A program made the translations under genes and the position numbers. The notes under the pieces are model-generated. The model did no database searches, was not told where the DNA came from, and was given only the letters and a program-made list of their open reading frames with translations. A stretch of DNA of 64,000 nt. Source: an uncultured Bacteroidales bacterium (lineage in GTDB: Bacteria > Bacteroidota > Bacteroidia > Bacteroidales > Bacteroidaceae). Within the stretch, counting starts at the first letter, position 1. Each line of letters begins with the position of its first letter. Location of the stretch: NCBI GenBank assembly GCA_902783885.1, contig CACZSQ010000073.1, positions 1,439 through 65,438 of the forward strand, given 5' to 3'. Below, in pieces: positions 14,329-62,780 of the stretch.

Positions 14329-15348
14329 ATGTTGCGTATTATATTCATGGGCACACCGGAGTTCGCGGTGGAGAGCCTGAGGAAATTAGTTGAGAACAAG
14401 TACAACGTGGTGGCAGTGGTCACGATGCCCGACAAGCCGGTGGGGCGCCATCACGACACGTTGCAGGCATCGCCCGTCAAGCAATACGCGGTGGAGCACG
14501 GCATCCCCGTGCTGCAACCGGAGCGTCTGAAGGATGAGGCGTTTCTGGAGGAACTGCGCAGCTACCATGCCGACCTGCAGGTGGTCGTGGCCTTCAGGAT
14601 GCTGCCTGAGGTCGTGTGGGCCATGCCCCCGAAGGGGACCTTCAACCTCCATGCAGCGCTGCTGCCACAGTACCGCGGCGCAGCGCCCATCAACTGGGCA
14701 GTCATCAATGGCGAGACGGAGACGGGCGTGACGACGTTCTTCCTCGATCACGACATCGACACTGGACGCATCATCCATCGCGTGCCGGCACCCATCGGCG
14801 AGCGCGACACCGTAGGCGATGTCTATGAGCGGCTGATGAACCTCGGCGCCGACCTGGTGCTGAAAACCATCGATGAAATCGAAGCTGGTGACGTGCAGAC
14901 AACAGACCAGGAGGCTCTGATACAAGCATCAGCTGCAGAACAGGATTCTGCATCCGACAGCGCGGGTGTCCTACGCCCTGCGCCCAAGCTCACCCGCGAG
15001 AACACGCGCATCTGCTGGGCAGAACACACGGTGAAATCGGCTTACGACTTCATCCGTGGCCTGTCACCCTACCCCGCAGCATGGACCATCCTCCGCACCG
15101 CCGACGGCAAGGAGACACCGCTCAAGATCTATTTCGCCGAGAAAGTTTCTGAAGAAGAAGCCGCGCACATCAACGCAGAGCTGCAGCCACAGCCCCAATC
15201 TTCATTATTCATTATTCATTGTTCATTAGTTATCTCACTCCGCGACGGCTACCTGCGCCTCACCGACATCCAACTGGCAGGCAAGAAACGTATGCCCGCC
15301 AGCGACTTCCTGCGAGGCGCACACTTAGACGGTGCCACCCTCATCTGA
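14329..15348 (+). CDS. fmt: Methionyl-tRNA formyltransferase
   Basis: MLRIIFMGTPEFAV, VVTMPDKPVGR, FNLHAALLPQYRGAAPINWAVINGETETGVTTF and LAGKKRM are classic Fmt motifs. Confidence 0.9.
   Translation: MLRIIFMGTPEFAVESLRKLVENKYNVVAVVTMPDKPVGRHHDTLQASPVKQYAVEHGIPVLQPERLKDEAFLEELRSYHADLQVVVAFRMLPEVVWAMPPKGTFNLHAALLPQYRGAAPINWAVINGETETGVTTFFLDHDIDTGRIIHRVPAPIGERDTVGDVYERLMNLGADLVLKTIDEIEAGDVQTTDQEALIQASAAEQDSASDSAGVLRPAPKLTRENTRICWAEHTVKSAYDFIRGLSPYPAAWTILRTADGKETPLKIYFAEKVSEEEAAHINAELQPQPQSSLFIIHCSLVISLRDGYLRLTDIQLAGKKRMPASDFLRGAHLDGATLI
15201..15229 (+). repeat. 7-bp word array (ttcatta x4) inside fmt
   Basis: ttcattattcattattcattgttcatta encodes SSLFIIHCSLV in the Fmt C-terminal domain. Related aatgaa words occur intergenically at about 10868-10890 and 11320-11335. 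Confidence 0.6.
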
Positions 15349-15357
15349 CTCAAAGCA

Positions 15358-15462
15358 CCACGAATTTCACGAATTGCACGAATTACATGTCCTATTGATA
15401 TCATTCTAATAATCATAGGTATCAGCTTGCTAAGAAATTCGTGCAATTCGTGTAATTCGTGG
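15358..15462. mobile_element. Short MITE-like element (~105 bp), same family as 14025-14283
   Basis: The left end ccacgaatttcacgaattgcacgaatt is inverted at the right end aattcgtgcaattcgtgtaattcgtgg. It has the same acatgtcctattgata core and the same flanking tatagaaagaacat. It lies between the convergent fmt and xylanase genes. Confidence 0.7.
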
Positions 15463-15488
15463 TATAGAAAGAACATTCGATAGTTCAA

Positions 15489-21502
<6,014 letters not shown>

Positions 21503-21536
21503 CGCTAAAAGAGCGGTCGTGGAGACATTTACATCG

Positions 21537-21544
21537 CAAAAATA
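21537..21544 (-). promoter_or_regulatory. -7 promoter motif (TAttTTTG on minus strand)
   Basis: Plus-strand caaaaata, 35 nt upstream of the ATG at 21502. Confidence 0.45.
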
Positions 21545-21758
21545 GCACAAATTCGATGAAAGTGTGTCATATTCGTCGGCAAAATGTATCTTTTTGTAAA
21601 AAAAAAGCTTTTTTGTTTGGCAGTTTCGCGAAAAACCTAGACCTTTGCCGCCGATATGCGGTAAAAAACGCCGATTATCACCAGAACATTATCAATTATT
21701 CACCAAATTCGTCATTGCCTATAGAAAGACATTACTCCAAACCAACTTGTAGAAAGTA

Positions 21759-22355
21759 ATGCAAAACTTGAACACAGAGACAGACGCACTCCTCGTCAAG
21801 CTCTATGAAGAAGGTAATGATGAAGCATTTGATGTTCTTCTCGCCCGCTACCAGAAAGCCATCTTCGGATATATCTATTCGATGGTGAAGGACCGTGAAT
21901 GGGCCAACGACCTTTTCCAAGACACTTTCGTGCGCGTCATTACGCGAATCCGCAGCCATCAATATACCGAGAATGGCAAGTTTGCGTCGTGGGTCATGCG
22001 CATCGCCCATAACCTGATGATTGATAGTACGCGTCAGCGCAAACCCTTCGTGGAGCCCAGCGATCAGCAGGAGAAAGAACGTCTCTTCGACAAAGCCGGC
22101 CTGATGGTAGGGAATGTAGAAATGGACTATCACAACGAGCAGACCTTCAATACGCTCGCCGAGATGATCAGCCGCCTGCCGAAGCCTCAGCAGGAGATTG
22201 TGCAGATGCGCATGTACGACCAGATGTCCTTCAAGGAGATTGCCGAGAAACTCGGCTGCAGCATCAACACCGCCCTCGGTCGTATGCGCTATGCCATCCT
22301 CAACCTGCGCAAGATGTCTGCCACCAGAGATCTTACTCTCATGGAAATGGAATGA
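21759..22355 (+). CDS. ECF-type sigma-70 family RNA polymerase sigma factor
   Basis: 198 aa. Region 2-like FDVLLARYQKAIFGYIYSMVKDREWANDLFQDTFVRVI and region 4-like QQEIVQMRMYDQMSFKEIAEKLGCSINTALGRMRYAILNLRK. Confidence 0.85.
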   Translation: MQNLNTETDALLVKLYEEGNDEAFDVLLARYQKAIFGYIYSMVKDREWANDLFQDTFVRVITRIRSHQYTENGKFASWVMRIAHNLMIDSTRQRKPFVEPSDQQEKERLFDKAGLMVGNVEMDYHNEQTFNTLAEMISRLPKPQQEIVQMRMYDQMSFKEIAEKLGCSINTALGRMRYAILNLRKMSATRDLTLMEME

Positions 22356-22371: not shown

Positions 22372-22600
<229 letters not shown>

Positions 22601-22837: not shown

Positions 22838-25800
22838 ATGAAAAAAAGAGTAACAATGCTTTTGGCAAGCCTCTTCCTCTTCGTGGGGGGAGCCCTTGCT
22901 CAAGAGACCATCAAGGGCACCGTCATCTCTGCCGATGACGGTGAACCGCTCCCTGGTGCGTCTGTTAAGATTCTCGGTGAAAAAACCGGCACCATCACAA
23001 ACATCGATGGTGAATTCACAATCGAAGTGCCCAACAGCGACACTCGTCTGGAGTTCTCGCACATCGGCATGAAGAGCCGCATCATCCGTGGCCGCACGGG
23101 TATGCGCATCGCCCTCGACTCCGACAATCAGTTGCTGGACGAGGTGATGGTTGTGGCATACGGTACGGCTAAGAAGTCGTCTTTCACGGGTTCTGCTGCC
23201 ATGGTGAAGTCTGAGGACATCGCCAAGATGCAAGTGAACAACCCTGTGGACGCCCTGCGCGGCAAGGTGGCCGGCGTGCAGCTGACCAACAGCAGCGGCG
23301 CCCCCGGACAGACGTCACCGACCATCCGCATCCGCGGTATCAACTCCATCAATGCCGGCACAGCTCCTTTGTATGTCATCGACGGCGTGCCCACAGGTTC
23401 TAACTTCGACCTCAACAACCTCAATGCTCAGGATATTGAGAGCATGAGCGTGCTGAAGGATGCTGCCGCCAGTGCCCTTTACGGTGCACGCGGTGCCAAT
23501 GGTGTCATCCTCATCACCACCAAGAAAGGTCGCCAGGGCAGCACCAGCATCACCGTAGATGCCAAGTGGGGTTCCAACTCCAGAGGCGTGCCCAACTACG
23601 ACGTCATCACCGACCCGGGCCAGTACTACGAGATGTGGTACGGTGCTTTGAACTCCTATGCCAAGAACGGTCTCGGCTACAACGACAACCAGGCATACAT
23701 CTGGGCCAACCAGCATCTGACCACCAACGATGCTCCCGGTCTGGGTTATAACGTCTTTACCGTTCCCGACGGCCAGAACCTCATCGGACGCAGCGGCCGC
23801 CTCAACCCCAATGCCACTCTCGGTCGCCTGCACACCTATAAAGATAAGCAGTATATGCTTTATCCCGATAACTGGGCAGATGAGACCTATCGCAACGGCC
23901 TGCGCCAGGAATACAGCGTCACCGCTAATGGCAGCAACGACAAGGCCAGTTTCTACACATCAGCCAACTACCTGAAGAACGAGGGTATCGTTCGCGAGTC
24001 AAGCTTCGAGCGCTTCACCGGCCGTTTGAAGGCCGACTATCAGCTTCGCCCCTGGTTGAAGCTCGCCGGCAACTTCGGCTACACCCACTACAAAACCAAA
24101 CAGAGCACGCCCGATGACGAAGGTTCTGCCGGTTCCAGTGGCAACCTGTTCGCCGTCAACACGATGGCTCCTATCTATCCCCTGTATGTCCGCGATGCCG
24201 CCGGCAACATCATCCACGATCCCCTCACGGGCATCTCCATGTATGACTACGGTACAAGCGCTGTCACCAACAACACCATTATCGGTCTGGACCGCCCTGC
24301 TACGGCTATGGGCTCGGGCAACCCCGTTGCTGCCAGCCAGCTGGACAAGGTGTACTATATCGGTAATGCCTTCAATGCTAACGGTACCGCCGAGATTCGC
24401 TTCCTCAAGGACTTCAAGTTCACAAGCTCCAACTCTGTCTTCATCGACGAGAGCCGCTCTACATCGACATCCAACCCCTATTATGGACAGTATGTTGCCA
24501 ATAACGGCACCATCTACAAGTCTCAGGGACGCACCATCAGCACCAATTTCCTGCAGCAGTTAGACTGGAGCCACAGCTTTGGCAAACACAATGTAGATCT
24601 GATGGTCGCTCACGAGTCTTACCGCTTCGTTAGTGATGTTGTCAGCGGTAACAAGAGTAATCAGTTCAACCCCGACAACGACGAGCTCTCCGGCGCTGTC
24701 ATCGTAGGTTCCACGAACTCTTCTGAAAGCGAGTACAACACCGAAGGTTTCCTCGGTCGCGCACAGTACAACTTCAACGAGAAGTACTTCCTGAGCGGCA
24801 GCTTCCGTCGCGATGCATCCTCACGCTTCCACCCCGACCACCGCTGGGGTAACTTCTGGAGCGCAGGTGCAGCCTGGCTGCTGAACAAGGAGAGTTTCCT
24901 GAAGAATGTGAAGTGGATTGATGAACTGAAATTCAAGGCCAGCTACGGTGAGCAGGGTAACGACAACCTGCCTTACAGCTACCTCTACACCACCACCTAC
25001 GCTATCGAGAACTCCAACGACAACGTCTCTCTCGTGCCCAACATCAAGGGTAATGAGAATATCACCTGGGAAACCGTGAGCACGTTCAACACGGGCTTCG
25101 ACTTCAGCCTGTGGAAAGGCCGTCTCTCCGGTGGCATCGAGTTCTACTACAAGAAGACGCGCGATATGCTCTACGCCTTCTCACTCCCGACCTCCTTCGG
25201 CTTCACCTACTATTATGATAACATCGGTGATATGCGCAACAGCGGTATTGAGTTGGAACTCCGTGGCGACCTCATTCGCACACAGGACATCACCCTCAGC
25301 CTCTATGCCAACGCTGCTTCGAACAGCAACAAAATCACCTTCATGCCCGAGGAGAACAAAACCACAGAGTGCGACGGCGTTCAGGGTTACGTCAGCGGTA
25401 GCTATTTCATCGGTGAGGGCGAGAGCATGTACAACTACCGCCTCCGCAAGTTTGCAGGCGTTGACCCCGAAACCGGTGTGGCACAATACTGGCGCGACGT
25501 GAAAGACGCCAGCGGCAATGTCATCGGCGAGGAGAAGGTCACCAATCCCTCTGACGCCACCTATCACCTCTGCGGCAGCGCCCTGCCCACATGGACCGGC
25601 GGCTTCGGCCTGAACTTCGAGGCCAAGGGCATCGACTTCAGCATGGACTTCGGCTACCAGCTCGGCGGCCAGATGTACGACAACGGCTATGCCGACGTGA
25701 TGGGCGTGGACAAAGGACAGGCCATCCACAAGGACATGATGAACGCCTGGAACCCCACCAACAAGTACTCCGACATTCCCCGTTATTACTACAACGAGAA

Positions 25801-31650: not shown

Positions 31651-31658
31651 GAGCTTAA

Positions 31659-31724
31659 CGCTTTTGCCATTGGTGGCAAATGCTTTTGCCATTGGTGGTA
31701 AATGCTTTTGCCATTGGTGGAAAA
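31659..31724. repeat. 3 x 22-bp tandem hairpin units
   Basis: cgcttttgccattggtggcaaa, tgcttttgccattggtggtaaa, tgcttttgccattggtggaaaa. tttgcca-ttgg-tggcaaa is a palindrome. The array starts 9 nt after the C10 stop. Confidence 0.85.
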
Positions 31725-31728
31725 ACCA

Positions 31729-31774
31729 AACACGTATATACGTTATTGCAAAAACGTATATACGTGTTTTTTTT
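31729..31774 (+). terminator. Rho-independent terminator (15-bp perfect stem plus T-run)
   Basis: aacacgtatatacgt - tattgcaaaa - acgtatatacgtgtt, followed by tttttt. Confidence 0.8.
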
Positions 31775-40649: not shown

Positions 40650-43600
40650 CTAAGCGTGTTCTTCGCACCACTTACGGGCGTTGACAAATGCCTCAATCCA
40701 AGGCGTAAGCTCATCACGGCTGCGGTTGGAAGGATAGAAAGCGCATTGCCAAGGGAAGATCGCACGTTCCAGGTGAGGCATCATCGCCAGATGACGGCCG
40801 TCAGCCGAGCAGAGGCCTGCCACGCTATAATCAGAACCATTGGGATTGCCAGGATATTCGTCGTAGCTGTACTTGGCCACCACATGATATGCGCTCTCGG
40901 GTTGCGGCAAATGGAACTTGCCCTCGCCGTGAGCCACCCAAATGCCGAGTTTGCTGCCAGCCAGAGAGCACAGCATCACGCTGTTGTTCTCAGGGATGGT
41001 GACGCCGAGGAAGGCGGACTCAAACTTGTGCGAAGTGTTGTGGAGCATTGTGGCCCCCCTTACGGCCCCCGAGGGGGCTTCTATTGTTTTGCTATTAGAG
41101 GACTTTACATCCGTGTCCCCCTCGGGGGATAACAGGGGGGCCAGCTCTAGGAGCCCCAACTCCACCATCAGCTGGCAGCCGTTACAGATACCGAGCGAAA
41201 GGGTGTCTGGACGAGCATAGAAGCGGTCGAGTGCTGCCTTGGCTTTGGGATTATACAGGAAGGCACCTGCCCACCCCTTCGCTGAGCCGAGGACGTCAGA
41301 GTTCGAGAAACCGCCGCAGAAGACAATCATCTGCACCTCATCCAGCGTCTCGCGGCCAGTAATGAGGTCGGTCATCATGACATCCTTCACGTCGAAGCCT
41401 GCAAGATAAAGGCTGTAGGCCATCTCGCGCTCACCATTCGTGCCTTTCTCACGGATGATGGCAGCACGAGGAGACCCAGCCCTCTGCCCCATACGAGGGA
41501 GGGAGATGGGGGTGGGTTTTATTTTCCACACGAGTGGCTGCTGCTTATAATTCTTATAGCGGGCATCAGCGCAGCCGTTCATGCTTTGCTTCGTATCGAG
41601 TTGATAGGAAGGACGATACCAGATGTCACGCAGTTCATCTATGTCAAGGGTTTCCTCAAAACCGCCCTTGCGGATGCGCAGCGAGCGTTCCCTTGCAGGT
41701 ACACCTATATATATATAGCCTACACCAGCCTCATCCATCAGCTTCTTGAATTCATCTTCGTGCTTGGTGCTGACCTGCACAACGACGCCAGGATTCTCGG
41801 CAAAGAGAATCTTCGTGATGTCCTCGCTTGCAAAATTGTTGAGATTCACTTTCATGCCACCCTTCGTATTGGCAAAGCACATCTCCAGAAGAGTGGTGAT
41901 GAGACCGCCGGCGCTGATGTCGTGTCCCGCCAGCAGCAAACCCTTCTTCACGCATTCCTGCACGGCATCAAAGGCATCGCGGAAATACTCAGGATTTGTG
42001 CACGTGGGCACATCTGAGCCCACTTTGCCATGAGCCTGGGCATAAGCGCTACCACCGAGGCGCAACTCGTCAAACGAGAAGTCGATATGATAGAGGGCAC
42101 TTTTGGGCTCGTCAGCCAGCACTGGGCTCACCACCTTGCGGATATCGCTGACCTCGCTACCGGAGGTGACGATGACGGTTCCAGGGGCAATAACCTTCGT
42201 GCCATCGGGATATTTCTGAGTCATGGAGAGGCTGTCCTTGCCTGTCGGGACATTGATTTCCAAAGCACAGCAGAATTCGGAGAGCGCTTCAACAGCTTTA
42301 TACAAGCGGGCGTCCTCACCCTTCTGTGAGCGGCACGGCCACATCCAGTTGGCACTGAGGCTGACGCTGTCAAGGCCTTCAGCCAACGGTGCCCACACGA
42401 TATTCGTCAAGCTCTCAGCCACAGAGAGGACAGAGCCTGCTGCGGGGTCTGCAAGGCCTGCCTGCGGGGCATGGCCCAAGGCGGTAGCGATACCCTTGCG
42501 CCCCTGATAGTCAAGGGCAACGACACCGCAATCCGACAGCGGCAGTTGCAGTTCGCCCTGGCACTGCTGGCGTGCCACCTTGCCCGTCACCGAGCGATCG
42601 ACCTTGTTCGTCAGCCAATCTTTGCAGGCAACAGCTTCGAGCGAGAGAACGCTCTCTATCATAGGCCCAATGGGGCTCATGGGGCTTATAGGATATTCAA
42701 CAGGCTGGTATTTACGCTCGACGGTCTCATCGACCATCACCGTCTTAGGCGAATGGCCGAACATCTGAGCCACGTCAAGGTCGAAGGGGCGAACGCCGTC
42801 GGCCTGTTCGAATGCGAAATGGGCATCGCCCGTGGTCTCACCGACGACATAAAGCGGAGCACGTTCGCGCTCAGCAATCTTGCGCACATGGTCGAGATGC
42901 TCTTCCTGAATGAGCAGTCCCATGCGCTCCTGGCTCTCGTTGGCAATAATCTCTTTGCTGGAGAGCGTAGGGTCGCCGATAGGGAGCTTTGACATATCAA
43001 TGAGTCCGCCGCACTCCTCCACCAGCTCGCTGAGGCAGTTGACGTGGCCTGCCGAACCGTGGTCGTGAATGCTGACGATGGGATTCACATCCTCTTCGCA
43101 CAAAGAGCGAACAAGGTTGTAGGCGCGCTTCTGCATCTCGGGGTTGGCTCGCTGGACAGCATTCAGCTCGATGCCGCTGCTGTAGCGACCTGTATCCACG
43201 CTGGACACAGAGCCTCCACCCAAGCCGATGCGGTAGTTGTCACCGCCAACGACGACAATCTTATTGCCCTTCTCAGGTGTGCCCTTCAAACAGTCGCGTT
43301 TGGTGCCATACCCCACGCCGCCTGCCAGCATGATGACCTTGTCGTAGCCATACTGCTCACCATTCTCTTCATGTTCGAAGGTGAGCACAGAGCCTGTTAT
43401 CAGCGGCTGACCGAACTTATTGCCGAAGTCGCTGGCTCCGTTGGAAGCCTTGATGAGAATCTGTTCAGGGGTCTGATAAAGCCATTTGCGAGGAGCCATC
43501 CCCTGCCCATCAAGGGCTAGGGGCTTCGGATAGGAAGTCATGTACACCGCCGTTCCGGCAATAGGCCATGAACCGACGCCACCGCCCATGCGGTCACGGA

Positions 43601-44417
43601 TTTCTCCGCCCGTGCCTGTGGAGGCTCCGTTGAAAGGTTCCACCGTCGTAGGGAAGTTGTGTGTCTCGGCCTTAATGCTGATGACACTCTCAATCTCCTT
43701 CACGCGGAACCAGTCGCTGGTGGAGTGGTCGGCAGGAGCGAACTGCTCCACGACAGGCCCCTCAGCAAAAGCCACATTATCTTTATAAGCAGAGATGATC
43801 TTGTGGGGGTTCTCCTGCGTCGTGCGCTTAATCATCTGGAAAAGGCTGCTGGGCATCTCCTTGCCGTCGATGATGAACGTGCCGCCGAAGATCTTGTGGC
43901 GGCAGTGCTCGCTGTTGATCTGAGCGAAGCCAAACACCTCGCTGTCCGTGAGCTTGCGTCCGAGCTGCCCCTCCACCTTGTGCAGGTATTCTATTTCCTC
44001 GGGCGAGAGCGCCAAGCCTTCCTGCTCGTTGTACTCCTCCAGATTCTCAATCGTCAGAATAGGAGCCGGCTCAATATCCACCGTGAAAATATTCTGGTCG
44101 AGCCCGTCGTACAGGCGCTGAAGCATAGGATCGTAATCCTCTCCCCCACGGGGAGAGTTAGAGAGGGGCCAATATTCCTCTATTCTCTGGATACCCTGAA
44201 TGGCCATGTTCTGGGTGATTTCCACAGCGTTGGTGCTCCAAGGGGTTATCATCTCGCGACGAGGTCCTACGAACCGCCCGTCGATTGCCTGGACTTCCAA
44301 GAACGTGGCATCGCCGTAGAGCCAGCAAAGTTTCTGAATATCCTCAGCGGTGAGCTGACGGCCTGCCTGAGTGGCGATAATGGACTGCTGCGGAGTCCTG
44401 AAAAAGAATATAGCCAT
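40650..44417 (-). CDS. purL: Phosphoribosylformylglycinamidine synthase, single-chain large form
   Basis: 1255 aa. [41 protein letters not shown] and the C-terminal amidotransferase GICNGCQLM ... HNTSHKFES ... AHGEG. I moved the start to [11 protein letters not shown] (ATG at 44417), downstream of the promoter motif. Confidence 0.9.
   Translation of the reverse strand: [1255 protein letters not shown]
41052..41142. mobile_element. ~90-bp palindromic (MITE/RPE-like) element in frame within the purL amidotransferase domain
   Basis: The left end ggcccccct tac ggcccccgagggggc and the right end gtccccctcgggggat aac aggggggcc are inverted copies. The segment encodes about [30 protein letters not shown], between [17 protein letters not shown] and [12 protein letters not shown]. 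Confidence 0.6.
42658..42693. repeat. 4 units of the 9-bp CNTATRRGG word, in frame inside purL
   Basis: atcataggc ccaatgggg ctcatgggg cttatagga. It encodes [12 protein letters not shown], a different reading frame of the word from the helicase copy. Confidence 0.75.
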
Positions 44418-44458
44418 TATATATGAGATATTTATGTGTCTGGTGGTTATTTTGTGCG

Positions 44459-44466
44459 CAAAGATA
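44459..44466 (-). promoter_or_regulatory. -7 promoter motif (TAtcTTTG on minus strand)
   Basis: Plus-strand caaagata, 42 nt upstream of the purL ATG at 44417. Confidence 0.5.
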
Positions 44467-44562
44467 CGGTTAAAAAGTGAGAAAAACACACGGACACGGC
44501 GGTTTTTGGGCGGAAAAAGGAAAAAAAACGATGAATTGTTTGGAGTGAAACTCATTTTAACA

Positions 44563-46526: not shown

Positions 46527-46702
46527 GTGAAGGATGAATCCTTATGGCGAGAAGATTTAAACCTTATCGGCAGAAGGATTAAACCTTATGGGCAGAGGAT
46601 TTATATCTTACGGTATGAAGATGCGGGTCTTACGGCTTGAAGATATAGGTCTTCAGGCCTGAAGACCTGCATCTTCTGCCATGAAGACCTGCACCTTAGA
46701 AC
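46527..46702. repeat. Tandem array of 8 x ~22-bp hairpin-forming units (gaaga-N-tctt family)
   Basis: gtgaaggatgaatccttatggc, gagaagatttaaaccttatcggc, agaaggattaaaccttatgggc, agaggatttatatcttacggt, atgaagatgcgggtcttacggc, ttgaagatataggtcttcaggc, ctgaagacctgcatcttctgcc, atgaagacctgcaccttagaac. The last unit supplies the stop codon of 46696..47037. Confidence 0.8.
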
Positions 46703-54279: not shown

Positions 54280-54280
54280 A

Positions 54281-57200
54281 TCATTTCTTCTTTCTAAAGA
54301 GGAACAAGTCACCGACGCGCTCGGTCTTGCGACGAAGCACCAAGCCGGCGCCCATCTCCGTGATTTCGCCGTCGAGGAGGCTCTCGTAGTTCTTGTCGTA
54401 GAACACGTTGACATAGCGGCTGCCGCCCTGATCGAGGCGGTACTCGATGCTGATATTGTCAATCATGCTCTGCCCCGTGTTGGTGGCATTCTCGCCGGTG
54501 CTGACCTTTCCGCCCACGATGACGCTGATGCGGTTGCCCCAGAAGCGCTTGGCAAATCGGAAGCTGTAGTCAGTGGTGGTGGCGCCCGTGGCCGCATTGG
54601 TTCCCTGTTCTACGCCCATACTGATATCGACGCTCTTGAGCGCTTTGTTGGTGATGTTCGAAATCTGACTCTGGAGGAACGAGTTGAGGGCGTTCTGCCC
54701 TGTGACGCCGCCTCCTGTCAGCGAACCGGCATCGTTGATGTACATACCCGTGGCCAGCATCGTCACAGCCAGACGCCCACGCTGCTCAGGGCTCATGGTG
54801 CTCAGTTCATTCTGTATGTAGGAGTCTTCGGGCGCTTCCAGGGTAAACTCGAGCCCGAGGTCCTGCAGAGTGCGTGTGATGTTCATACCCACGTCGAAGT
54901 TGACGCTTCGCGGCTGCTCGTTCTCGGTGATGGTAGTGCGCACACGCTCACTGGCCGACAAGTTGAGCGACGGGTTCATCAGCGGTCCCCGGAACTCCAC
55001 GTAGCTGCCACTCTTGATAACGAACTCCTTGAGGGGGATAACCATCATGGTGTACTTCATCATACCTCGGTTGATGGTGTAGCGTCCGTTCAGCTGCAGG
55101 TCTTTATCCGGCGAATATGTCATCAACAGGTCTCCGCCGCCCTCTACATCCACATAGCTGGAGCCATCGGGGCTCAGGAGGCAGTGCGCCACAGCCGCAT
55201 CGGCAATATTGACGCTCATGGAGATGTTCAGGTGCTGCGGATTTGCGGTAGCAGCGGGGGCCACATAGAGCGTGTCGGTGAAATCCACGAACTCCACGAG
55301 CTCCGAGAGGTGGTCGGTAGTAGTGAGCGGTGAATCGGTGAGCAGATAGGTGACATCTGTGCTGCCCAGTACGCCGAGCTTACCCTTGATGTTCAAGTCG
55401 TCAAGTGTGCCCCGGAGCATGGCACTGAAATCCACAAACACCTTACCATAGGCAATGGCTTTTGGTGACTTGGGGGCATTGATGAGTTCGAAGTTATGTG
55501 CCGCCATCGTGGTGTTGACGGTGATGCGCTCGGTGTCGGAAAAGTTGATGGTGCCGTCCATCGTGAAAGGCGTAGCGCCTGTGGAATAGATGTTGATGCG
55601 GTCGAGGTTGAGTTGGCTATTACGGATGGTGATGGTGTCATCCTCTACCCTCAGATTGAGACTGTACGGGTCGGAGAGGATCTTCAAGCCAGAAGTGGTC
55701 AGGAGTCCGTCAACCGAGGGCTTGGACGTGCTCCCGCCCACGTGAATATTGCCGATGGCCACGCCTTCGAGACGCGCCATGTTGTCGGGGATGAAGCCGT
55801 TGGCCAGCGCAAAGGGCAATCGGTTCAGTTCTGCATCCACGTCGATGACGCCATCGGTTTCGTTGGGCGTGTAGGAACCGCGGAAGGCCGCCACGGGAAC
55901 GCCCATCTGCAACAGGTTTCCATCGATGAAATGGGTCCCGTCGGCATTGGGGAGATAGACGGCCTCAAGGCCCACGGGTCCGAGCGTTGCCTGCTCATAG
56001 CGCAGGTTATCGATGCTGAGGTCTGTGGAGACGCTTATGGCTTCGCCCTTCTGGATGAGGTGGGCATCACCCTCGAGGAAGCCACCTAAACGCGGCATAT
56101 AAGGTACTACGCTCGACAACTCTCCCAAGTTGAAATGGGAGATGGCCACGGAGAGGTCTTGCAGCGCCTCGCTGTTGGGCGAAGAGTAGATCTTCAATCC
56201 CGTGCCGTCGTCGGCCACGAGATTGATATCTGCGTCAATGCGGTTGCCTTTGGTGAGCATGATATAGTTGTCGGCATTGAGCCGGAAACTGCGGTAGGCA
56301 AGCATGGGAGAGAGCGGTGTCAGGTGGAGCCGCAAGGTGTCGTTGGCCACACGTCCTTGCAAGCCCATGTCAACGCCCTTGCGCCCCTTGTCGTCGAAAT
56401 AGACAAGGTTGGCACTGGCAACGCCATCGCGGTCAATGCTGGCATTGAGGCGGCTGTCAAAGGTGAAATGTGGGTTACGCCGCCCGTTGTGGACGCGTGC
56501 ATCCATTCTCACACTGGTGGAATCCTGATAGAGATGAGCCTGAATCGTGTCGAGTTGCATCCCCGGCAGGGCAAACTTGTAGATATGTCCTCCTCCATTG
56601 ATGCCGATGAGCGGGTCGAGATTGATGCCCATGCGAATGTCCTCAAAGCCGTAGCCCATAGCCGAGAGGAAGTCGTGGACGATGTTCTGTTCGCCCATCT
56701 GCAGGCGCATATCAATCTGCGGCAGGCGCTTCGTCAGTGCCTCCTCATCGAAGCGGCGCTCCTCCATCTGCCGGTTGAGTTCATCCATGAAGTGGCCCAG
56801 CTGTCCGGCCAGGCGGTCGTAGCCGGTGTGCCCTCTCAGGCGCAGGCTCATATCTCCGCTGTTCAATGTGGCATAAGTGGTGTCAGAGGCCAGATAGGCT
56901 TCCAGCCCCACGTCCTCCGGTCGGAAGACGGAGTCCTGATGCATCAGCACGATATCGTTGATGAATCCCTCGATGCGGTGGCGGTCTTTCAGGTTAGTAC
57001 TTCCGTCCATGTGCAGGCACATGGATGCTTTGACGGGCTGTTCCACCAATCCAAGCGCCTGCAGGTCGGCACGTGAGAGGTCGAGGCCAAAGGTGAGGTG
57101 GCAGAGTGCATCGCGGAAACTGTTGGTAAGCATAGTACTCACGTCGGCCTGAGCTATCAGAATCGGATTGTCGATGCTCAGGCGTGCCGTTCCCTTGCCG

Positions 57201-58771
57201 TCGCGCAGCAGCGCCTGCATGGCCGTCCCATGGAGTTGGAGACTGTCATAGGTGAGTTCCTGCACGAGCGCCTCTGCCTCCAGACGTGTGGCACGGCTGA
57301 AGAAATCAGTTCCTACGCCGCGTGCCGAAGCGGTGGCGGAAAGCGGACCCAGCGGCAAACCGGGCATGAAATGTGTCAGTTGCAGGCGCTGCAGTTGCAG
57401 GCGTGCATCGTAGGTCATGGGGTCACTGATGTCCAGCTGAACGTCGAGGTTGGCGATTCCCCTGTCCTCGCGCAGATGACTCTGGGTAGCTATGCGTGAG
57501 CCGTGAACCGTAGCCTTACCGCCCAACTGCATCGGCGGCAACAGGATTCCGTCCAGGGCTCCATCGGCCATGCCGCGCACCCATGCGATATCCCGTGTCT
57601 GAATATTATATAGGATGTCACCGCCACGGGCCAGCGAATCCATCAGCTGTTCCAAAGAGCCGCGCGCGTCAGCATGAATGCTGCCAGGCAGGTTCGCCTC
57701 GGCCTGGGTAAGGATCAGATGATCTACATTCCCTGCCAACGCCACGCTGACGTGCAGCAACCGGTCGGGATAGGCCTTAGCGAATGAGGCGGGTAGCATA
57801 TCTCCCGCTGCACGCAGAAGGTCGGCCTTGGCCAGTGTTGTCCGCAAGCTAACATCCAATCCCCCACCCTGTCCGGCTTCCAGCGCACGGAAATCGATGT
57901 CGGCGGCAGCGTTTACCTTGGAGCCGGGCAGCGTGAGCGCCATCGACGGCAGTGCCAAGTGGGCCCTTTCGCCGTCGAAAGCGATGTTCTTGGCCGTGAG
58001 TAGCAGCGAGTCTGCGCGCATGGGCAAAGCGTCCCGCACGGCATCGCCTGCCATCCACAGCGCAGCACGCTCTGCCTGCAAACGTGCCTCGCCAACCTGA
58101 TAAAGCTGACTCCCAAGGTCCAGCTGTATGTCTTGCGCTGAAAAATGCTCCACCGCCGCGCGCGCCACCATGGCCGAGTCGCCAGGCATGGCAAATCGTA
58201 TGCGAGCATCCTCGATGTGTGCTTCAGCAAGTCCAATCACCCACTCCAAGGGTGCGCTCTCGGTGGTGTCCACTACGGTCGTGTCGCGCATCTCAATGTC
58301 TATGTTCAGCCCTCTGGCAAGCAGATGATCCATGTTCACCTTCTGGTCAGCAAGTTCAACGTCGTCCTTGAGTGTAAGCAAGTCGAGGCGCCCGCGGATG
58401 CCTGCAACGGCTATCATGTCCTTGGTGTCGAGAGCTACGTCATGGAGGCTCAGCTCTTCCACGTTGATGCTGCCGTTTAAGATGCGCGTGAACGCCAGAT
58501 CCACGACAGCCTGGCGCGCTGCCACTACCGTGTCCCCATCGGTGTCGAGCACCATGAAGTCCTGCAGGCGCAGGTCCGCAATCGGCTGGAGACGCAGTCG
58601 CCCGATGCGTATGTCCAGGCCAGTGATCTCAGAGGCATAAGCCGTAGCCTTCCGCACTGCGAAGTCCTGTACGGGGGGGATATATAGAAGTATTGCGACC
58701 AGGAGCAGCAGCCCGAAGGGGATTGCCACCGCTATACCTGCCCACATGAGGAAACGTTTCATTAGTTTCAT
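54281..58771 (-). CDS. Translocation and assembly module TamB-like protein
   Basis: ~1496 aa. N-terminal TM anchor MKLMKRFLMWAGIAVAIPFGLLLLVAILLYIPP, a long beta-rich body and a DUF490-like C-terminus. Paired with the TamA-like gene. Confidence 0.75.
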   Translation of the reverse strand: MKLMKRFLMWAGIAVAIPFGLLLLVAILLYIPPVQDFAVRKATAYASEITGLDIRIGRLRLQPIADLRLQDFMVLDTDGDTVVAARQAVVDLAFTRILNGSINVEELSLHDVALDTKDMIAVAGIRGRLDLLTLKDDVELADQKVNMDHLLARGLNIDIEMRDTTVVDTTESAPLEWVIGLAEAHIEDARIRFAMPGDSAMVARAAVEHFSAQDIQLDLGSQLYQVGEARLQAERAALWMAGDAVRDALPMRADSLLLTAKNIAFDGERAHLALPSMALTLPGSKVNAAADIDFRALEAGQGGGLDVSLRTTLAKADLLRAAGDMLPASFAKAYPDRLLHVSVALAGNVDHLILTQAEANLPGSIHADARGSLEQLMDSLARGGDILYNIQTRDIAWVRGMADGALDGILLPPMQLGGKATVHGSRIATQSHLREDRGIANLDVQLDISDPMTYDARLQLQRLQLTHFMPGLPLGPLSATASARGVGTDFFSRATRLEAEALVQELTYDSLQLHGTAMQALLRDGKGTARLSIDNPILIAQADVSTMLTNSFRDALCHLTFGLDLSRADLQALGLVEQPVKASMCLHMDGSTNLKDRHRIEGFINDIVLMHQDSVFRPEDVGLEAYLASDTTYATLNSGDMSLRLRGHTGYDRLAGQLGHFMDELNRQMEERRFDEEALTKRLPQIDMRLQMGEQNIVHDFLSAMGYGFEDIRMGINLDPLIGINGGGHIYKFALPGMQLDTIQAHLYQDSTSVRMDARVHNGRRNPHFTFDSRLNASIDRDGVASANLVYFDDKGRKGVDMGLQGRVANDTLRLHLTPLSPMLAYRSFRLNADNYIMLTKGNRIDADINLVADDGTGLKIYSSPNSEALQDLSVAISHFNLGELSSVVPYMPRLGGFLEGDAHLIQKGEAISVSTDLSIDNLRYEQATLGPVGLEAVYLPNADGTHFIDGNLLQMGVPVAAFRGSYTPNETDGVIDVDAELNRLPFALANGFIPDNMARLEGVAIGNIHVGGSTSKPSVDGLLTTSGLKILSDPYSLNLRVEDDTITIRNSQLNLDRINIYSTGATPFTMDGTINFSDTERITVNTTMAAHNFELINAPKSPKAIAYGKVFVDFSAMLRGTLDDLNIKGKLGVLGSTDVTYLLTDSPLTTTDHLSELVEFVDFTDTLYVAPAATANPQHLNISMSVNIADAAVAHCLLSPDGSSYVDVEGGGDLLMTYSPDKDLQLNGRYTINRGMMKYTMMVIPLKEFVIKSGSYVEFRGPLMNPSLNLSASERVRTTITENEQPRSVNFDVGMNITRTLQDLGLEFTLEAPEDSYIQNELSTMSPEQRGRLAVTMLATGMYINDAGSLTGGGVTGQNALNSFLQSQISNITNKALKSVDISMGVEQGTNAATGATTTDYSFRFAKRFWGNRISVIVGGKVSTGENATNTGQSMIDNISIEYRLDQGGSRYVNVFYDKNYESLLDGEITEMGAGLVLRRKTERVGDLFLFRKKK

Positions 58772-58786
58772 ACTACTTTTCGAGTG

Positions 58787-58794
58787 CAAAAGTA
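58787..58794 (-). promoter_or_regulatory. -7 promoter motif (TActTTTG on minus strand)
   Basis: Plus-strand caaaagta, 16 nt upstream of the ATG at 58771. Confidence 0.4.
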
Positions 58795-58837
58795 GTGATT
58801 TTTTTTAGCTTATGTGAAAAAAGTGTGAGTTTTTACA

Positions 58838-58845
58838 TACCTTTG
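58838..58845 (+). promoter_or_regulatory. -7 promoter motif TAccTTTG
   Basis: 20 nt upstream of the ATG at 58865. Confidence 0.45.
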
Positions 58846-58864
58846 TCGCAAAATCGTGTTTTCT

Positions 58865-60604
58865 ATGGTTCAAGACATACAATTACGCGTGCTGCCGCGT
58901 GTTGCAGCCACCGATGCCAGCATTCGTGAGCTGGTGCTTCAGGAACTGGGATCTGGTGCACAAGAGTTACGTGACCTACGGGTGATTCGCCGCAGCATCG
59001 ATGCGCGCCAGCGACAGGTGATGGTGAATCTCACGGTGCGTGCGTGGCTGAACGAGGAGCCCACGGCAGCATTCCCACAGGTGGAGTACCGCGATGTTTC
59101 AGGGTGTCCGCAGGTGATTGTCGTGGGCGCGGGCCCAGGTGGCCTGTTCGCAGCACTGCGCTTGATAGAACTAGGGTTGCGCCCCATCGTCGTTGAACGC
59201 GGCAAGGATGTTCACGCGCGCAAACTCGATTTGGCACGAATTGCCCGCGAGCACAGTGTCAACCCCGAAAGCAACTACAGCTTCGGCGAAGGCGGCGCAG
59301 GAGCCTACTCCGACGGCAAGCTCTACACGCGCTCCAAGAAACGTGGCTCAGTGGAGAAGATCCTGAACGTGTTCTGCCAGCATGGGGCCTCCACCAACAT
59401 CCTCATTGATGCCCACCCCCACATCGGCACCGACCGCCTGCCGCGCGTCATCGAGAACATACGCAACACCATTCTCCGCTGCGGCGGCGAAGTGCATTTC
59501 CAGACCCGCATGACCCGTCTCATCATCGAGGGTAACCGCGTCATCGGCATCGAGGCACAAAGTTCTTTGACCGGCGAAGGACTCTCCGCTCGGCCCAACG
59601 GGACGCTTGACCCTTCAAGAACTATTAACTCTCCGCTCGGCGCTTGCGACGCTTTGCTCTGCGAAGAACTATTAACCTTCACTGGCCCCGTCATCCTCGC
59701 CACAGGCCATTCCGCTCGCGATGTCTATCGCCTGCTGGCCAACAGCGGCATCGAGATTGAAGCCAAAGGCATCGCCGTGGGCGTGCGCCTAGAGCATCCT
59801 GCACAGCTCATCGACCAGATACAGTATCACAGCCGCGAAGGTCGCGGACGCTGGCTTCCGGCAGCGGAATATGCCTATGTACAGCAGTGCGGCGGGCGTG
59901 GTGTCTATAGTTTCTGCATGTGTCCGGGCGGCTTCGTGGTTCCTGCGGCCACAGGTCCCGAGCAGGTCGTCGTCAACGGCATGAGCCCCAGTAACCGAGG
60001 CGGGCGCTGGAGCAACTCTGGCATGGTCGTGGAGATACGCCCCGAGGACCTCATGGAAATAGACAATGGGCAATGGGCCATGGATCATGGAGAGAATCAT
60101 TGTCAGCCATCAGTTGACAATCCTCAATTACAAATGCTCCTCTTTCAGGAACATCTCGAGCATCTCGCCTGGCAGCAGGGCGGGCGCCGGCAGACAGCCC
60201 CCGCACAGCGCATGGCTGACTTCGTGAACGGAAGACTGAGCGCCGACCTGCCCGCGAGCAGCTATGCCCCTGGCCTCGTGGCCTCACCCCTCCACTTTTG
60301 GATGCCCCGCTTCATCAGCGAGCGCCTGCAAGAAGGCTTCCGTGCCTTCGGGCGCAAGAGCCATGGTTTCCTCACCAACGAGGCCACCCTCATCGGTGTG
60401 GAGACGCGCACCTCTTCGCCCGTGAGAATCCTGCGAGATGCTGACACCCTGCACCACATCCGCCTCGAAGGCCTCTACCCCTGCGGCGAGGGAGCCGGCT
60501 ATGCCGGCGGTATCGTCAGTGCCGCGATCGACGGGGAACGCTGTGCCGATGCCGTGGCTCAATCATACCGCCTACAAACATTCGGCATTGTACAGAGATC
60601 CTAG
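58865..60604 (+). CDS. NAD(P)/FAD-dependent oxidoreductase (COG2509-like)
   Basis: VIVVGAGPGGLFAALRL dinucleotide-binding motif, FGEGGAGAYSDGKLYTRSKKRG, ILATGHSARD, GEGAGYAGGIVSAA. Confidence 0.7.
   Translation: MVQDIQLRVLPRVAATDASIRELVLQELGSGAQELRDLRVIRRSIDARQRQVMVNLTVRAWLNEEPTAAFPQVEYRDVSGCPQVIVVGAGPGGLFAALRLIELGLRPIVVERGKDVHARKLDLARIAREHSVNPESNYSFGEGGAGAYSDGKLYTRSKKRGSVEKILNVFCQHGASTNILIDAHPHIGTDRLPRVIENIRNTILRCGGEVHFQTRMTRLIIEGNRVIGIEAQSSLTGEGLSARPNGTLDPSRTINSPLGACDALLCEELLTFTGPVILATGHSARDVYRLLANSGIEIEAKGIAVGVRLEHPAQLIDQIQYHSREGRGRWLPAAEYAYVQQCGGRGVYSFCMCPGGFVVPAATGPEQVVVNGMSPSNRGGRWSNSGMVVEIRPEDLMEIDNGQWAMDHGENHCQPSVDNPQLQMLLFQEHLEHLAWQQGGRRQTAPAQRMADFVNGRLSADLPASSYAPGLVASPLHFWMPRFISERLQEGFRAFGRKSHGFLTNEATLIGVETRTSSPVRILRDADTLHHIRLEGLYPCGEGAGYAGGIVSAAIDGERCADAVAQSYRLQTFGIVQRS
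59561..59677 (+). repeat. Repeat-derived segment in frame inside the oxidoreductase ORF
   Basis: It contains cgctcggcccaacgggacgcttgacccttcaagaa (59587-59621), about 30/35 identical to the intergenic copies at 10974 and 11187. It also has a 13-bp perfect direct repeat, aagaactattaac, at 59617-59629 and 59664-59676. It encodes about SSLTGEGLSARPNGTLDPSRTINSPLGACDALLCEELL. Confidence 0.65.
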
Positions 60605-60627
60605 TCAGGACAAGTGATTACGAGAAA

Positions 60628-61080
60628 TTAGAGGTCCTGCTTGTCGATATCTATCTTGCGGAGATAGAACTTCACTTTGGCACACAACTCGTCGAAGTGG
60701 CGCTCCATCTCCATCACCGTGCGCTGCTGTGCGTAGTAGGCCTGGTTCGTTTGCCCGTTCTCGCGAGGAAGCATCTGCTTGAAGTCGGCGCGGGCGGCAT
60801 CAAGCATCTGTTCATAGTGCGCTACGCTGTCGCGGGTGGCCAGAAGCTCCACGCTGTCGAGCGTCAGAATGGCTGCGCGGCGCGTCTGTAGCGCTGTGGG
60901 ATGTTGTTTGCGCAAGTCGAGGATAGTGGCACGCGCGCTGTCATAGTTCTTTTCGGAGAGCTGTTGACGGGCATCGGCGAGCATCTGCTGGGCGGCCACC
61001 TCTGCAACATTGGAGGCAGGTTTGCAGGCGAAGATAGCCAGCGTGGCCATGGCGAGACCTATGGTGTGACGGATTTTCAT
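60628..61080 (-). CDS. Hypothetical helical lipoprotein
   Basis: MKIRHTIGLAMATLAIFACKP lipobox (ATG at 61080). 150 aa. Confidence 0.5.
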   Translation of the reverse strand: MKIRHTIGLAMATLAIFACKPASNVAEVAAQQMLADARQQLSEKNYDSARATILDLRKQHPTALQTRRAAILTLDSVELLATRDSVAHYEQMLDAARADFKQMLPRENGQTNQAYYAQQRTVMEMERHFDELCAKVKFYLRKIDIDKQDL

Positions 61081-61088
61081 TTCGGACA

Positions 61089-61096
61089 CAAATGTA
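61089..61096 (-). promoter_or_regulatory. -7 promoter motif (TAcaTTTG on minus strand), 9 nt before the ATG
   Basis: Plus-strand caaatgta. Would give a leaderless or very short-leader mRNA. Confidence 0.3.
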
Positions 61097-61175
61097 GCCG
61101 ATTCTTCTGAGACCGCAGATGGGCGACCGCATCTTTTATCCTCGTTTAACGTTGAAGGCAACGCTTTAACGTTTT

Positions 61176-62780
61176 TTAGGTGGTGATGCCGAGTTTTTTT
61201 GCCTTTTCGATGATGAAGGCAAGGGCGGCGTCGTGGTCGTTGGGGATGAGGCCGTCGAGGATGGCGTCCTTGACGGCTGTCTTGAGGGTGCCCACCTCAC
61301 GGGAGGGCGGCAGATGGAAGTGCTCCATGATCTCCTCGCCGCTGACGGGCGGCTGGAAGTTGCGGATACGGTCGCGTTCCTCGAGGTCGATGAGCTTCTG
61401 GCGCACGAGCTTGAAGTTGTCGAGGAAGCGTTGCTTGCGCTGCTCGTTCTTGCTGGTGATGTCCGCCTCGCACAGCAGCATCAGGTCGTCAATGTCGTCG
61501 CCCGCCTCAAACAGCAGGCGTCGCACAGCGCTGTCAGTCACTTCGTCGTCAGCGATGGCGATGGGGCGCATGTGCAGCGACACCAGCTTCTGCACATACT
61601 TCATCCGCTCGTCCATCGGCAGCTTCAGGCGCCGGAAAATCTGCGGCACCATCTTCTCGCCAATATAATTATGGTTATGGAACGTCCAGCCCAGCTGCGG
61701 GTCCCAACGCTTCGACTTCGGTTTCCCGATATCGTGCAGCAGCGCCGCCCAGCGCAGCCAGACAGACTCCTCTTTATCTCCCCTTCCTGACGGGAGGGGT
61801 TGGGTCTGCTGTTTCTTCACGACATTCGTCAGCACCTCAAGCGTGTGCCAGAAGTTGTCTTTGTGGGCGCGGCCGTTGACAGTGTCTATACCCTGGAGAG
61901 CGTAGAGCTCGGGGAAGATGAGTTCCAGGAGGCCGCATTGGAACAACAGCTCAAAGCCTCGTGCGGGGCTGTCAGAAGCCATGATTTTCTGCAGCTCGTC
62001 AATGATGCGCTCGCCGGAGATGATCTTGATGCGCTCGCGGTTGCGGTTGAGCGCCTCGAACGTCTCGGGCTCAATCTCGAAATTCAGCTGCGTGGCAAAG
62101 CGGATGCAGCGCATCATGCGCAGCGGGTCGTCGGAGAAGGTTACGTCGGGGTCCAGTGGTGTCGCTATGAGACGGTCCTGCATGTCCCACACACCGTCGA
62201 AGGGATCTACCAACTCGCCGAAGCGCGCCGTGTTCAGGCAGATGGCCATGGCGTTGATGGTGAAGTCGCGCCGCTGCTGGTCATCCTCCAAGGTGCCGTC
62301 CTCAACAATGGGCTTGCGGGAGTCGTGGCTGTAGCTCTCGCGGCGCGCGCCGACAAACTCCAGCTCGATAGTTGCTTCGCAACGGTCAGAGTCGCTTCGC
62401 GACGGTGAAGGTTGCTTCGCAACGGTGAGTAGTTCCTCACCCTTCTCACCTCTAACCGCACCGCAGGTGCTTTCACCTCTCACCGCGCAGAAGGCGCTTT
62501 CACCAATAAAAGCTTTCACCTGCGCCGTGCCGAAGTTCCTGAAGACGCTCACGTGTGCGCCGCGCCCAAGGCGCCTGGCCACAGCCTTGGCCAGCTCTAT
62601 GCCGCTGCCCACGCACACCACATCGATGTCCTTGGACGGCCGTTCCAGGAACAGGTCGCGGACATAACCGCCCACGACATAACACTCCACGCCCTGTTCA
62701 TCGGCCACCTGCCCAATGAGTTCAAACACAGGGTTTTCGCGAAGCAGAAGAGTCAACTGTTGCCGGTCTAAAAGTCTCAT
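61176..62780 (-). CDS. CCA tRNA nucleotidyltransferase / poly(A) polymerase family protein with an HD domain
   Basis: YVVGGYVRDLFLERPSKDIDVVCVG, FGTA...IELEFVGARRESY, RDFTINAMA, LLHDIGKP (HD). Confidence 0.8.
   Translation of the reverse strand: MRLLDRQQLTLLLRENPVFELIGQVADEQGVECYVVGGYVRDLFLERPSKDIDVVCVGSGIELAKAVARRLGRGAHVSVFRNFGTAQVKAFIGESAFCAVRGESTCGAVRGEKGEELLTVAKQPSPSRSDSDRCEATIELEFVGARRESYSHDSRKPIVEDGTLEDDQQRRDFTINAMAICLNTARFGELVDPFDGVWDMQDRLIATPLDPDVTFSDDPLRMMRCIRFATQLNFEIEPETFEALNRNRERIKIISGERIIDELQKIMASDSPARGFELLFQCGLLELIFPELYALQGIDTVNGRAHKDNFWHTLEVLTNVVKKQQTQPLPSGRGDKEESVWLRWAALLHDIGKPKSKRWDPQLGWTFHNHNYIGEKMVPQIFRRLKLPMDERMKYVQKLVSLHMRPIAIADDEVTDSAVRRLLFEAGDDIDDLMLLCEADITSKNEQRKQRFLDNFKLVRQKLIDLEERDRIRNFQPPVSGEEIMEHFHLPPSREVGTLKTAVKDAILDGLIPNDHDAALAFIIEKAKKLGITT
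62370..62507. repeat. 138-nt in-frame repeat segment inside the CCA-enzyme ORF, built from tandem words in inverted arms
   Basis: gttgcttcgcaacggt occurs twice and agtcgcttcgcgacggt once. These face ttctcacctctaaccgcaccgcaggtgc and tttcacctctcaccgcgcagaaggcgc, which are about 75% reverse-complementary. The segment encodes IGESAFCAVRGESTCGAVRGEKGEELLTVAKQPSPSRSDSDRCEAT, between FGTAQVKAF and IELEFVGARRESY. Confidence 0.7.

Follow-up and report, generated by a model that had tools for sequence, protein, structure and literature searches.

Introduction

Rickettsia palindromic elements (RPEs), as Ogata and colleagues are said to have described them in 2000, are dispersed palindromic repeats of ~100 bp that occur in coding and non-coding DNA; housekeeping genes harbour them in frame with the ORF intact, and the peptides, encoded in a fixed phase, lie in surface regions of the proteins. 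We know of no nuclease partner for RPEs, and in-frame selfish repeats have largely been regarded as a Rickettsia curiosity for which no mobilising enzyme is known. Here we examined a 64,000-nt stretch of DNA from an uncultured Bacteroidales bacterium (GenBank assembly GCA_902783885.1, contig CACZSQ010000073.1, positions 1,439 to 65,438; hereafter the window), in which a sequence-only reading had flagged six repeat segments lying in frame in at least five housekeeping open reading frames (ORFs), namely fmt, a nuclease-helicase, purL, a FAD-dependent oxidoreductase and a CCA enzyme. With a probability of roughly 80%, these segments are lineage-specific insertions of several short interspersed repeat families of rumen Prevotellaceae, kept in frame in protein loops; a DUF559 endonuclease would mobilise one kind of them.

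Several described systems invite comparison. RPEs are mentioned in PMC1458961 and PMC1779305. Bacterial MITEs (miniature transposable elements with inverted repeats) are known inside ORFs, as in the case of the enterobacterial RU-1/2/3 elements (PMC2759123) and in Coxiella (PMC5896051; reviewed in PMC10969869). Repetitive extragenic palindromes (REPs) and the bacterial interspersed mosaic elements (BIMEs) have REP-associated tyrosine (RAYT) transposases (PMC3733652, PMC3184786), and Vsr-like nucleases are known homing endonucleases, found in fractured genes (PMC2677866) and represented by I-Bth0305I (PMC3239194). In the literature searched, which did not cover subscription journals, we found no description of elements like those reported below.

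Results

Six repeat segments lie at length gains of five host proteins

The scaffold that contains the window comes from a rumen metagenome (ENA STEW19-1, scaffold_56) and is 132 kb long; judged by helicase identity, the nearest GTDB species are uncultured rumen Prevotellaceae. Pfam identified the hosts as fmt, a PD-(D/E)XK plus superfamily 1 (SF1) helicase, PurL, a FAD-dependent protein (PF21688) and an enzyme of the CCA/poly(A)-polymerase type that has an HD domain, in agreement with all five names first given to them. They were compared with 120 PurL orthologues (77–99% identity, 1217 to 1374 aa long), 69 GTDB Bacteroidales helicase orthologues, 118 representatives of the FAD protein plus 3NLC, CCA relatives, among them proteins at 58–66% identity and also Aquifex 4wby, and, for fmt, 4iqf plus two orthologues at 51–55% identity. 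Labels such as P0002 and P0005 denote orthologue proteins (P0185 and P0127 being CCA enzymes), and L001 or L008 DNA loci. Tandem repeats were delimited with Tandem Repeats Finder (TRF), hairpin tendency was expressed as a DNA fold z score, and loop location was read from the predicted local distance difference test (pLDDT) of AlphaFold2 (AF2) models.

All six segments were present, in frame in open ORFs and each at a lineage-specific length gain of its host protein, fmt being the weakest case. The flagged positions had no homologous residues in the 69 helicases, the 118 FAD proteins, the CCA relatives or PurL P0005, and further copies of the modules turned up in non-coding DNA of the window, in the next gene, in other PurL loops of relatives and in unrelated rumen proteins. 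In 1.3 Mb of loci from more distant Bacteroidales the modules were almost wholly lacking, and the families are thus lineage-restricted. The sequence-only reading had ascribed tandem-word or palindromic structure to every segment: repeat structure was indeed seen at each of them, but a hairpin fold was confined to two, PurL 41052 (z −5.35) and CCA 62370 (z −3.0), and the fold z test showed none in the 9-bp arrays, the fmt array or the FAD 59558 segment. Likewise, lengths in multiples of three hold for the net inserts but not for some repeat tracts as delimited.

The suggestion that several repeat families reside in frame could be refined to four distinct kinds. Kind 1 is a GC-rich palindromic element of ~63–110 bp with two terminal repeats of ~27–32 bp, each with an inner C5-G5 hairpin; it occupies PurL 41052, and solo or decayed repeats lie in three further PurL loops and one CCA loop. 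Kind 2 comprises hairpins with tandem-word arms, built like the hairpins abundant in intergenic DNA (CCA 62370, FAD 60053 and, as a half-form, fmt). Kind 3 is a mosaic core module (FAD 59558), and kind 4 a 9-bp minisatellite (helicase and PurL 42657) whose copy number shifts by slippage. Five of the segments described below were not among the six flagged, three of them in PurL and one each in the FAD protein and the CCA enzyme. A scan of the long window ORFs for peptide motifs yielded no additional terminal-repeat-type inserts; a terminal-repeat-like GC palindrome in ComEC (32935) was rejected, not being an insertion.

As the source is a metagenome scaffold and repeats can cause misassembly, artefacts such as chimeric joins at repeats had to be considered. 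We find this hardly credible, since reading frames of up to 1255 codons remain uninterrupted and the same elements recur at the same sites in independent assemblies from ENA, NCBI, JGI and Logan.

Palindromic elements occupy recurrent loops of PurL

Length differences among the 120 PurL orthologues were concentrated in five loops, and the same modules were found at different loops in different orthologues; P0091 even held near-identical copies in two different loops of one gene. The recurring modules included PLSNSPRGGE…ALPPTGGAGRGA, TPNPSRxGGE…, IHNSQFTIHN…IMNYELSIMN, TNDELRMTNDE…SSFVTRHSS and SARPNGTLDPSRT, the first of which is a ~110-bp palindromic DNA element in which the terminal repeats are conserved and the loop varies.

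In the window, a complete GC-rich palindromic element occupies hot spot 5, the GATase loop (41052–41142, minus strand). Its inverted repeat (41051–41143, 27-nt arms) has a terminal repeat on each side of a 39-nt loop, both with an inner C5-G5 hairpin, and the element encodes APLLSPEGDT…EAPSGAVRGA. The GATase loop accordingly counts 56 residues against a baseline of 29–30 (+26 aa), and the site is empty in P0005, at 90% identity. Compared with its copy in P0002, the element was identical at 88 of 91 positions, against 83% for the gene overall and 61% at third codon positions, making it the best-conserved 91-nt stretch of purL in this comparison.

Three other loops hold solo or decayed terminal repeats. 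At hot spot 1 (44133–44168, minus strand) we newly found a solo repeat, CCCCTCTCTAACTCTCCCCGTGGGGGAGAGG (PLSNSPRGGEDY), which matches the terminal repeat of full elements in orthologues at 27 of 28 positions and is replaced by native sequence in P0002. Hot spot 2 (43492–43527, minus strand; +21 nt versus P0002) contains the newly found degenerate remnant KPLALDGQGMAP of a PLSDSPRGGE-type terminal repeat, and the orthologues display graded decay at this site, from KPLSDSPRGGESMPP through KPLSDSQGMAP to KPLALDGQGMAP of the window. At hot spot 4, which TPNPSRxGGE-type elements occupy in orthologues, the stretch 41472–41519 (minus strand; KPTPISLPRMGQRAGS) is probably, at low confidence and judging from DNA comparison with P0005, a degenerate terminal-repeat remnant.

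The longest purL ORF adds 46 codons upstream of MAIFFFRTPQQ…, which is probably where the protein begins, and the extension (44417–44555) looks non-coding; read from the sequence, the true start is most likely 44417 rather than 44555. The next gene on the contig (window 63081 onward, past the window end; L001 7478–9700) encodes a 740-aa protein without a Pfam match. It holds a solo terminal repeat (EPPLSSPEGDT) of the PurL 41052 family and a full DSPPALPVREG…SLTGRAGGES element, whose palindromic family is also present in PurL orthologues. Beyond it, L001 contains two D12 methyltransferase genes and one for an AlwI-type restriction enzyme.

Inserts in the FAD protein and the CCA enzyme fall in predicted loops

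The mosaic core at hot spot 1 of the FAD protein (59558–59686, plus strand) is made of two 47-bp tandem units (TRF 59581–59676) with the core CGCTCGGC…GACGCTTGAC.CTTCAAGAA. It adds a net 34 aa that are missing from 3NLC and the 118 representatives, and in the AF2 model pLDDT fell below 50 at aa 240–263, in a predicted beta-hairpin loop. The core module was found at 10974 and 59587 (0.00 expected), with further copies at ~11187 and ~59634. As the sequence-only reading had claimed, two copies are non-coding (10974–11008, adjoining CACGAATT word arrays, and 11187–11219, identified by repeat search; both plus strand), and the core peptide SARPNGTLDPSRT also appears in PurL hot spot 3 of P0006 and P0011. 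In a Bacteroidaceae metagenome-assembled genome from water-buffalo rumen (L055, 15980–17660), the core module and ATGCCGTAGGCAT mini-hairpins are arranged in tandem mosaics, like E. coli BIMEs. Hot spot 2 (60053–60136, plus strand), newly found, holds the degenerate tandem-word hairpin MEIDNGQWAMDHGENHCQPSVDNPQLQM, which adds 20 aa at a gap versus 3NLC and resembles the insert MENGQWKMDN…IVNCQLSIIN in hot spot 3 of PurL P0029; the AF2 model has low pLDDT around aa 400–420.

The CCA enzyme carries a hairpin insert of 45 aa at hot spot A (62370–62513, minus strand; TRF 62370–62504, 20 bp x 3 + 27 bp x 2.2). Tandem words make up its arms (27 bp x 2; 20 bp x 3), and every word contains a small palindrome. 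The site has 48 residues versus 3 in Aquifex 4wby, and the spacing between NFGTAQVK and ELEFVGAR is 65 residues versus 20 in relatives. At hot spot B (61767–61805, minus strand) we newly found a solo terminal repeat, TQPLPSGRGDKEE, that lengthens the loop by 13 aa (31 versus a baseline of 18) and matches a TPNPSRQGGE-family terminal repeat at 22 of 23 positions. In the AF2 model of the CCA enzyme, pLDDT was below 50 at aa 98–135, between two strands. Indeed, in the models of both proteins such values were confined to the inserts, which are predicted to lie between paired strands or helices, supporting their placement in loops.

One minisatellite recurs at three loci

The helicase array (20480–20536, minus strand) has ~6 units (TRF 20480–20535, 9 bp x 6.2), and its 17 aa are missing in all 69 GTDB orthologues. 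At PurL hot spot 3 (42657–42698, minus strand; repeats 42659–42693), 4 units encode YPISPMSPIGPM, versus 5 units in P0005 and P0007; here the array supplants the native linker, and since the net gain is merely 3 aa, the site is mostly a replacement. The third array (18004–18117, ~12 units), which had correctly been taken for non-coding, is essentially so, with the stop codon of the helicase on one side and, near 17978, the likely signal-peptide start of the following gene on the other. The same 15-mer, ATGGGGCTTATNGGA, closes all three arrays (18103, 20522 and 42679; 3 observed versus 0.00 expected). The codon phase of the 9-bp word differs, being P-Y-x in the helicase and S-P-M in PurL, so that the likeness exists at the DNA level and not at the peptide level. 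As in coding minisatellites (variable number tandem repeats), the tandem units are 3n bp long, here with a three-codon period, and their number differs between relatives; unlike in those, one array with a shared 15-nt end is found at three loci including non-coding DNA.

The non-coding array (18048–18119) also provides the last two codons and the stop of the helicase gene and gives the next gene an in-frame ATG further upstream (18050), the real start of that gene probably being MVKKSS… near 17978. Synteny with fmt was not kept in the GTDB helicase loci, 1 of 69 containing fmt.

In fmt, a (TTCATTA)x4 array (15201–15229, plus strand; TRF 15201–15228, 7 bp x 4) encodes SLFIIHCSLV and looks like one arm of a tandem-word hairpin. 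The protein is about 7–9 aa longer there than 4iqf and the two orthologues, in a poorly aligned stretch. The TTCATTN word occurs at 15201–15227 in fmt and, on the other strand, at 10870–10889, within a non-coding array of the same family identified by repeat search (10863–10889, minus strand). The fmt interdomain linker (14914–14970, aa 196–214) is 10–13 aa longer than in the two orthologues and of low complexity (QASAAEQDSASDSAG); no DNA repeat was detected in it.

These segments raise the question of whether the inserts are ordinary variable linkers, arising from loop drift and from microsatellites expanded in place by slippage with no mobile element involved. The differing copy number of the 9-bp array among orthologues is what slippage predicts, the PurL 9-bp site and the fmt region are variable in all homologues, and neither the 9-bp arrays nor the fmt and FAD segments fold as hairpins. 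Drift in place is nevertheless unlikely as an account of the whole, given one 15-nt array end at three loci, one core module shared by the FAD protein, intergenic DNA and PurL of other genomes, and palindromic elements that keep their terminal repeats at many unrelated sites.

The PurL terminal repeat is dispersed among unrelated rumen genes

When metagenomes were scanned with the terminal repeat of the PurL 41052 element, at least 120 stretches matched and 80 loci were listed; the following counts are among the matches listed. The 80 loci held 86 sites, 69 of which (80%) were inside long ORFs, versus 71% for sites placed at random in these loci. The host ORFs represent 140 Pfam families, such as radical SAM enzymes, glycoside hydrolases, ABC transporters, GTPases and PntB. 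All 55 sense copies were in one codon phase, reading APLSSPEGDT…EAPSGAVGGA, while all three phases were free of stop codons. The length was a multiple of 3 in 53 of 61 regex matches to the full element, a few of which are duplicate offsets of one element.

The strict phase (55/55) and the hydrophilic, Pro/Gly/Ser-rich peptides would fit protein-level modules, for example flexible spacers or binding motifs, that selection favoured for their function and recombination carried from gene to gene. We consider such an origin very unlikely: two genes read the 9-bp word in different phases, the elements are palindromic at the DNA level and have copies in non-coding DNA and as flanks of nuclease genes, and the hosts have no common function, the inserts being predicted to be disordered.

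Among mobile elements, those of the window resemble MITEs in being short and non-autonomous, with terminal inverted repeats in the palindromic elements and some copies within genes that add peptide. They differ in that no target-site duplication was seen, that the larger partner encodes a DUF559 nuclease instead of a transposase, and that the coding share (80%) is at the level of random positions and not exceptional. With REPs and BIMEs they share small GC-rich palindromic units, often paired or in mosaics, and a dedicated enzyme gene flanked by such units; however, REPs are extragenic by definition whereas the present elements are mostly in ORFs (69/86), and the flanked gene encodes DUF559 rather than a Y1 transposase.

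The same terminal repeats flank DUF559 nuclease genes

Six clusters of CCA orthologues carried in-frame inserts of 151–168 aa at the same two hot spots as the window enzyme, with terminal-repeat peptides at their borders and a full-length DUF559 domain (Pfam E 1e-32 to 1e-35). The domain was at hot spot A in four clusters and at hot spot B in two (including P0185 and P0127), and most relatives were empty at these sites. Perfect inverted repeats formed the DNA ends of the inserts. An endonuclease ORF thus recurs at conserved CCA sites with filled and empty alleles, as a homing endonuclease gene does.

DUF559 relatives are mostly stand-alone genes of 120–130 aa from Bacteroidaceae, Prevotellaceae and Muribaculaceae, and the domain also occurs in frame inside LeuRS, Acs, RNase HI and a cupin; its closest solved structure is 3HRL. 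The repeat design of the CCA DUF559 elements was seen again in one stand-alone copy (L008) and in the copy fused to RNase HI (L011), and in L141 the DUF559 gene is flanked by the repeat family of the window PurL 41052 element, with 25 of 26 bases identical. On viral contigs, 3 of 68 DUF559 genes had terminal repeats, and all three belonged to the seven closest relatives as ranked by E-value and identity. No transposase was seen between such terminal repeats, DUF559 being the only larger partner found. At L206 (1314–1904), a DUF559 gene lies between terminal repeats that are doubled and nested, as though each flank held a miniature element, which hints at the origin of composite forms.

The hairpins would fold once transcribed into mRNA, and in-frame inserts with a nuclease are laid out like inteins; the inserts might therefore be removed by RNA or protein splicing before the protein matures. 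We judge this highly unlikely. Rfam gave zero matches at gathering thresholds across the window, to introns or any other RNA family, and the DUF559 inserts lack intein splicing motifs and intein ends (Cys/Ser at the N-terminus, and His-Asn at the C-terminus before Cys/Ser/Thr), beginning with APSNLPP or APLPSP and ending with …EGACI|E or …RGAS|L. Moreover, whole-codon lengths and a single phase are expected from selection by translation through the element. As in Vsr-like homing endonucleases and inteins, a Vsr-fold nuclease gene lies inside conserved enzyme genes at recurrent sites, and these systems set a precedent for the fold driving mobility. Those nucleases, though, sit in introns or split inteins or break a gene in two, whereas here, as far as sequence can tell, the nuclease would be in frame without splicing motifs, with hairpin terminal repeats and with miniature derivatives at many sites.

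Intergenic hairpins and other repeats

Hairpins with tandem-word arms crowd the intergenic DNA of the window (2806–2880, 2973–3068, 7190–7279, 11254–11395, 14023–14282, 15357–15463 and 46529–46697), often right after stop codons, with arm words such as CACGAATTN, AGGGTACAC and 22-bp TCTTATGGCCTGAAGACCTAGG units. The one at 15357–15463, directly 3' of the fmt stop codon, reads (CACGAATTN)x3, loop, (NAATTCGTG)x3 and has a z score of −8.65. These hairpins may be terminators and the source pool of the in-gene hairpins. Elsewhere, a 7-bp array (AGTTGAG, ~21 copies) followed by an 11-bp array lies in non-coding DNA at 22372–22567, upstream of the gene starting at 22838, and downstream of a peptidase gene (31657–31774) a 22-bp x 3 tandem repeat, GCTTTTGCCATTGGTGGAAAAT, is directly followed by a 26-nt perfect-type palindrome.

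Discussion

The repeat families of the window are dispersed, reside in frame, are present or absent among close orthologues and lie in protein loops. By analogy, the elements appear to work like RPEs, to which we do not assign them, their host belonging to Prevotellaceae. Like RPEs, they include dispersed families able to form hairpins (the PurL family with more than 86 copies, and CCA 62370), although the 9-bp, fmt and FAD segments do not share this property; their copies are in frame in open ORFs as well as in non-coding DNA, and the CCA and FAD inserts are predicted to be at the surface, leaving the fold undisturbed in the AF2 models. Unlike RPEs, they belong to another phylum, comprise several co-resident kinds including minisatellites and tandem-word hairpins, look recently active, as judged from near-identical copies and from sites that are empty in proteins at 90% identity, and in one family have a candidate nuclease partner.

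We propose a model in which inserts are tolerated in essential genes when they land in surface loops, are free of stop codons in the phase used and add whole codons. Kind 1 elements would be miniature, non-autonomous forms of elements of ~460–590 bp, in which the same terminal repeats flank a gene for a DUF559 endonuclease (Vsr-like, PD-(D/E)XK). The nuclease would cut DNA, and full and miniature elements would be copied in during repair.

Several observations weigh against insertion of mobile families or against the part given to the nuclease. The 80% coding share means that the PurL element is not excluded from genes and demonstrates no preference for them. Inspection by eye revealed neither target-site duplication nor a clear target motif flanking the 61 full-element regex matches among those listed. 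The high conservation of the PurL element might come from constraint at the DNA level instead of recent arrival, the CCA hairpin, of which no second copy turned up in the DNA examined, is assigned to its class by architecture only, and the fmt case consists of a 28-nt array plus a poor alignment. As for the nuclease, tblastn of the window and L001 found no DUF559 gene in the window or 10 kb beyond, most phage DUF559 genes do not have such repeats, and its role is suggested by co-occurrence in eight loci. We tentatively propose a mobile class that appears undescribed, comprising DUF559 genes enclosed by hairpin-bearing terminal repeats and the miniature forms derived from them, and rate this proposal at a little under even odds. 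Both forms would be adapted to in-frame life in genes, being free of stop codons, made of whole codons and held to one reading phase, and would be widespread in rumen Prevotellaceae, repeatedly reshaping loops of core enzymes.

If the proposal is correct, RPE-like selfish DNA in proteins would for the first time have a candidate enzyme, and there would be a natural case of a nuclease domain expressed inside a host protein as an internal domain. RPE-like behaviour, seemingly active and on a large scale, is seen here in an abundant gut and rumen lineage, with a candidate nuclease that can be tested. The insertions explain large length differences among close orthologues of core enzymes, such as PurL of 1217 to 1374 aa, and will mislead orthologue alignment, gene calling and domain annotation, for instance through DUF559 'fusions' with CCA, RNase HI, LeuRS and Acs. 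The inserts also offer a natural map of insertion-tolerant loops and bear on the origin of new peptide segments and domain insertions.

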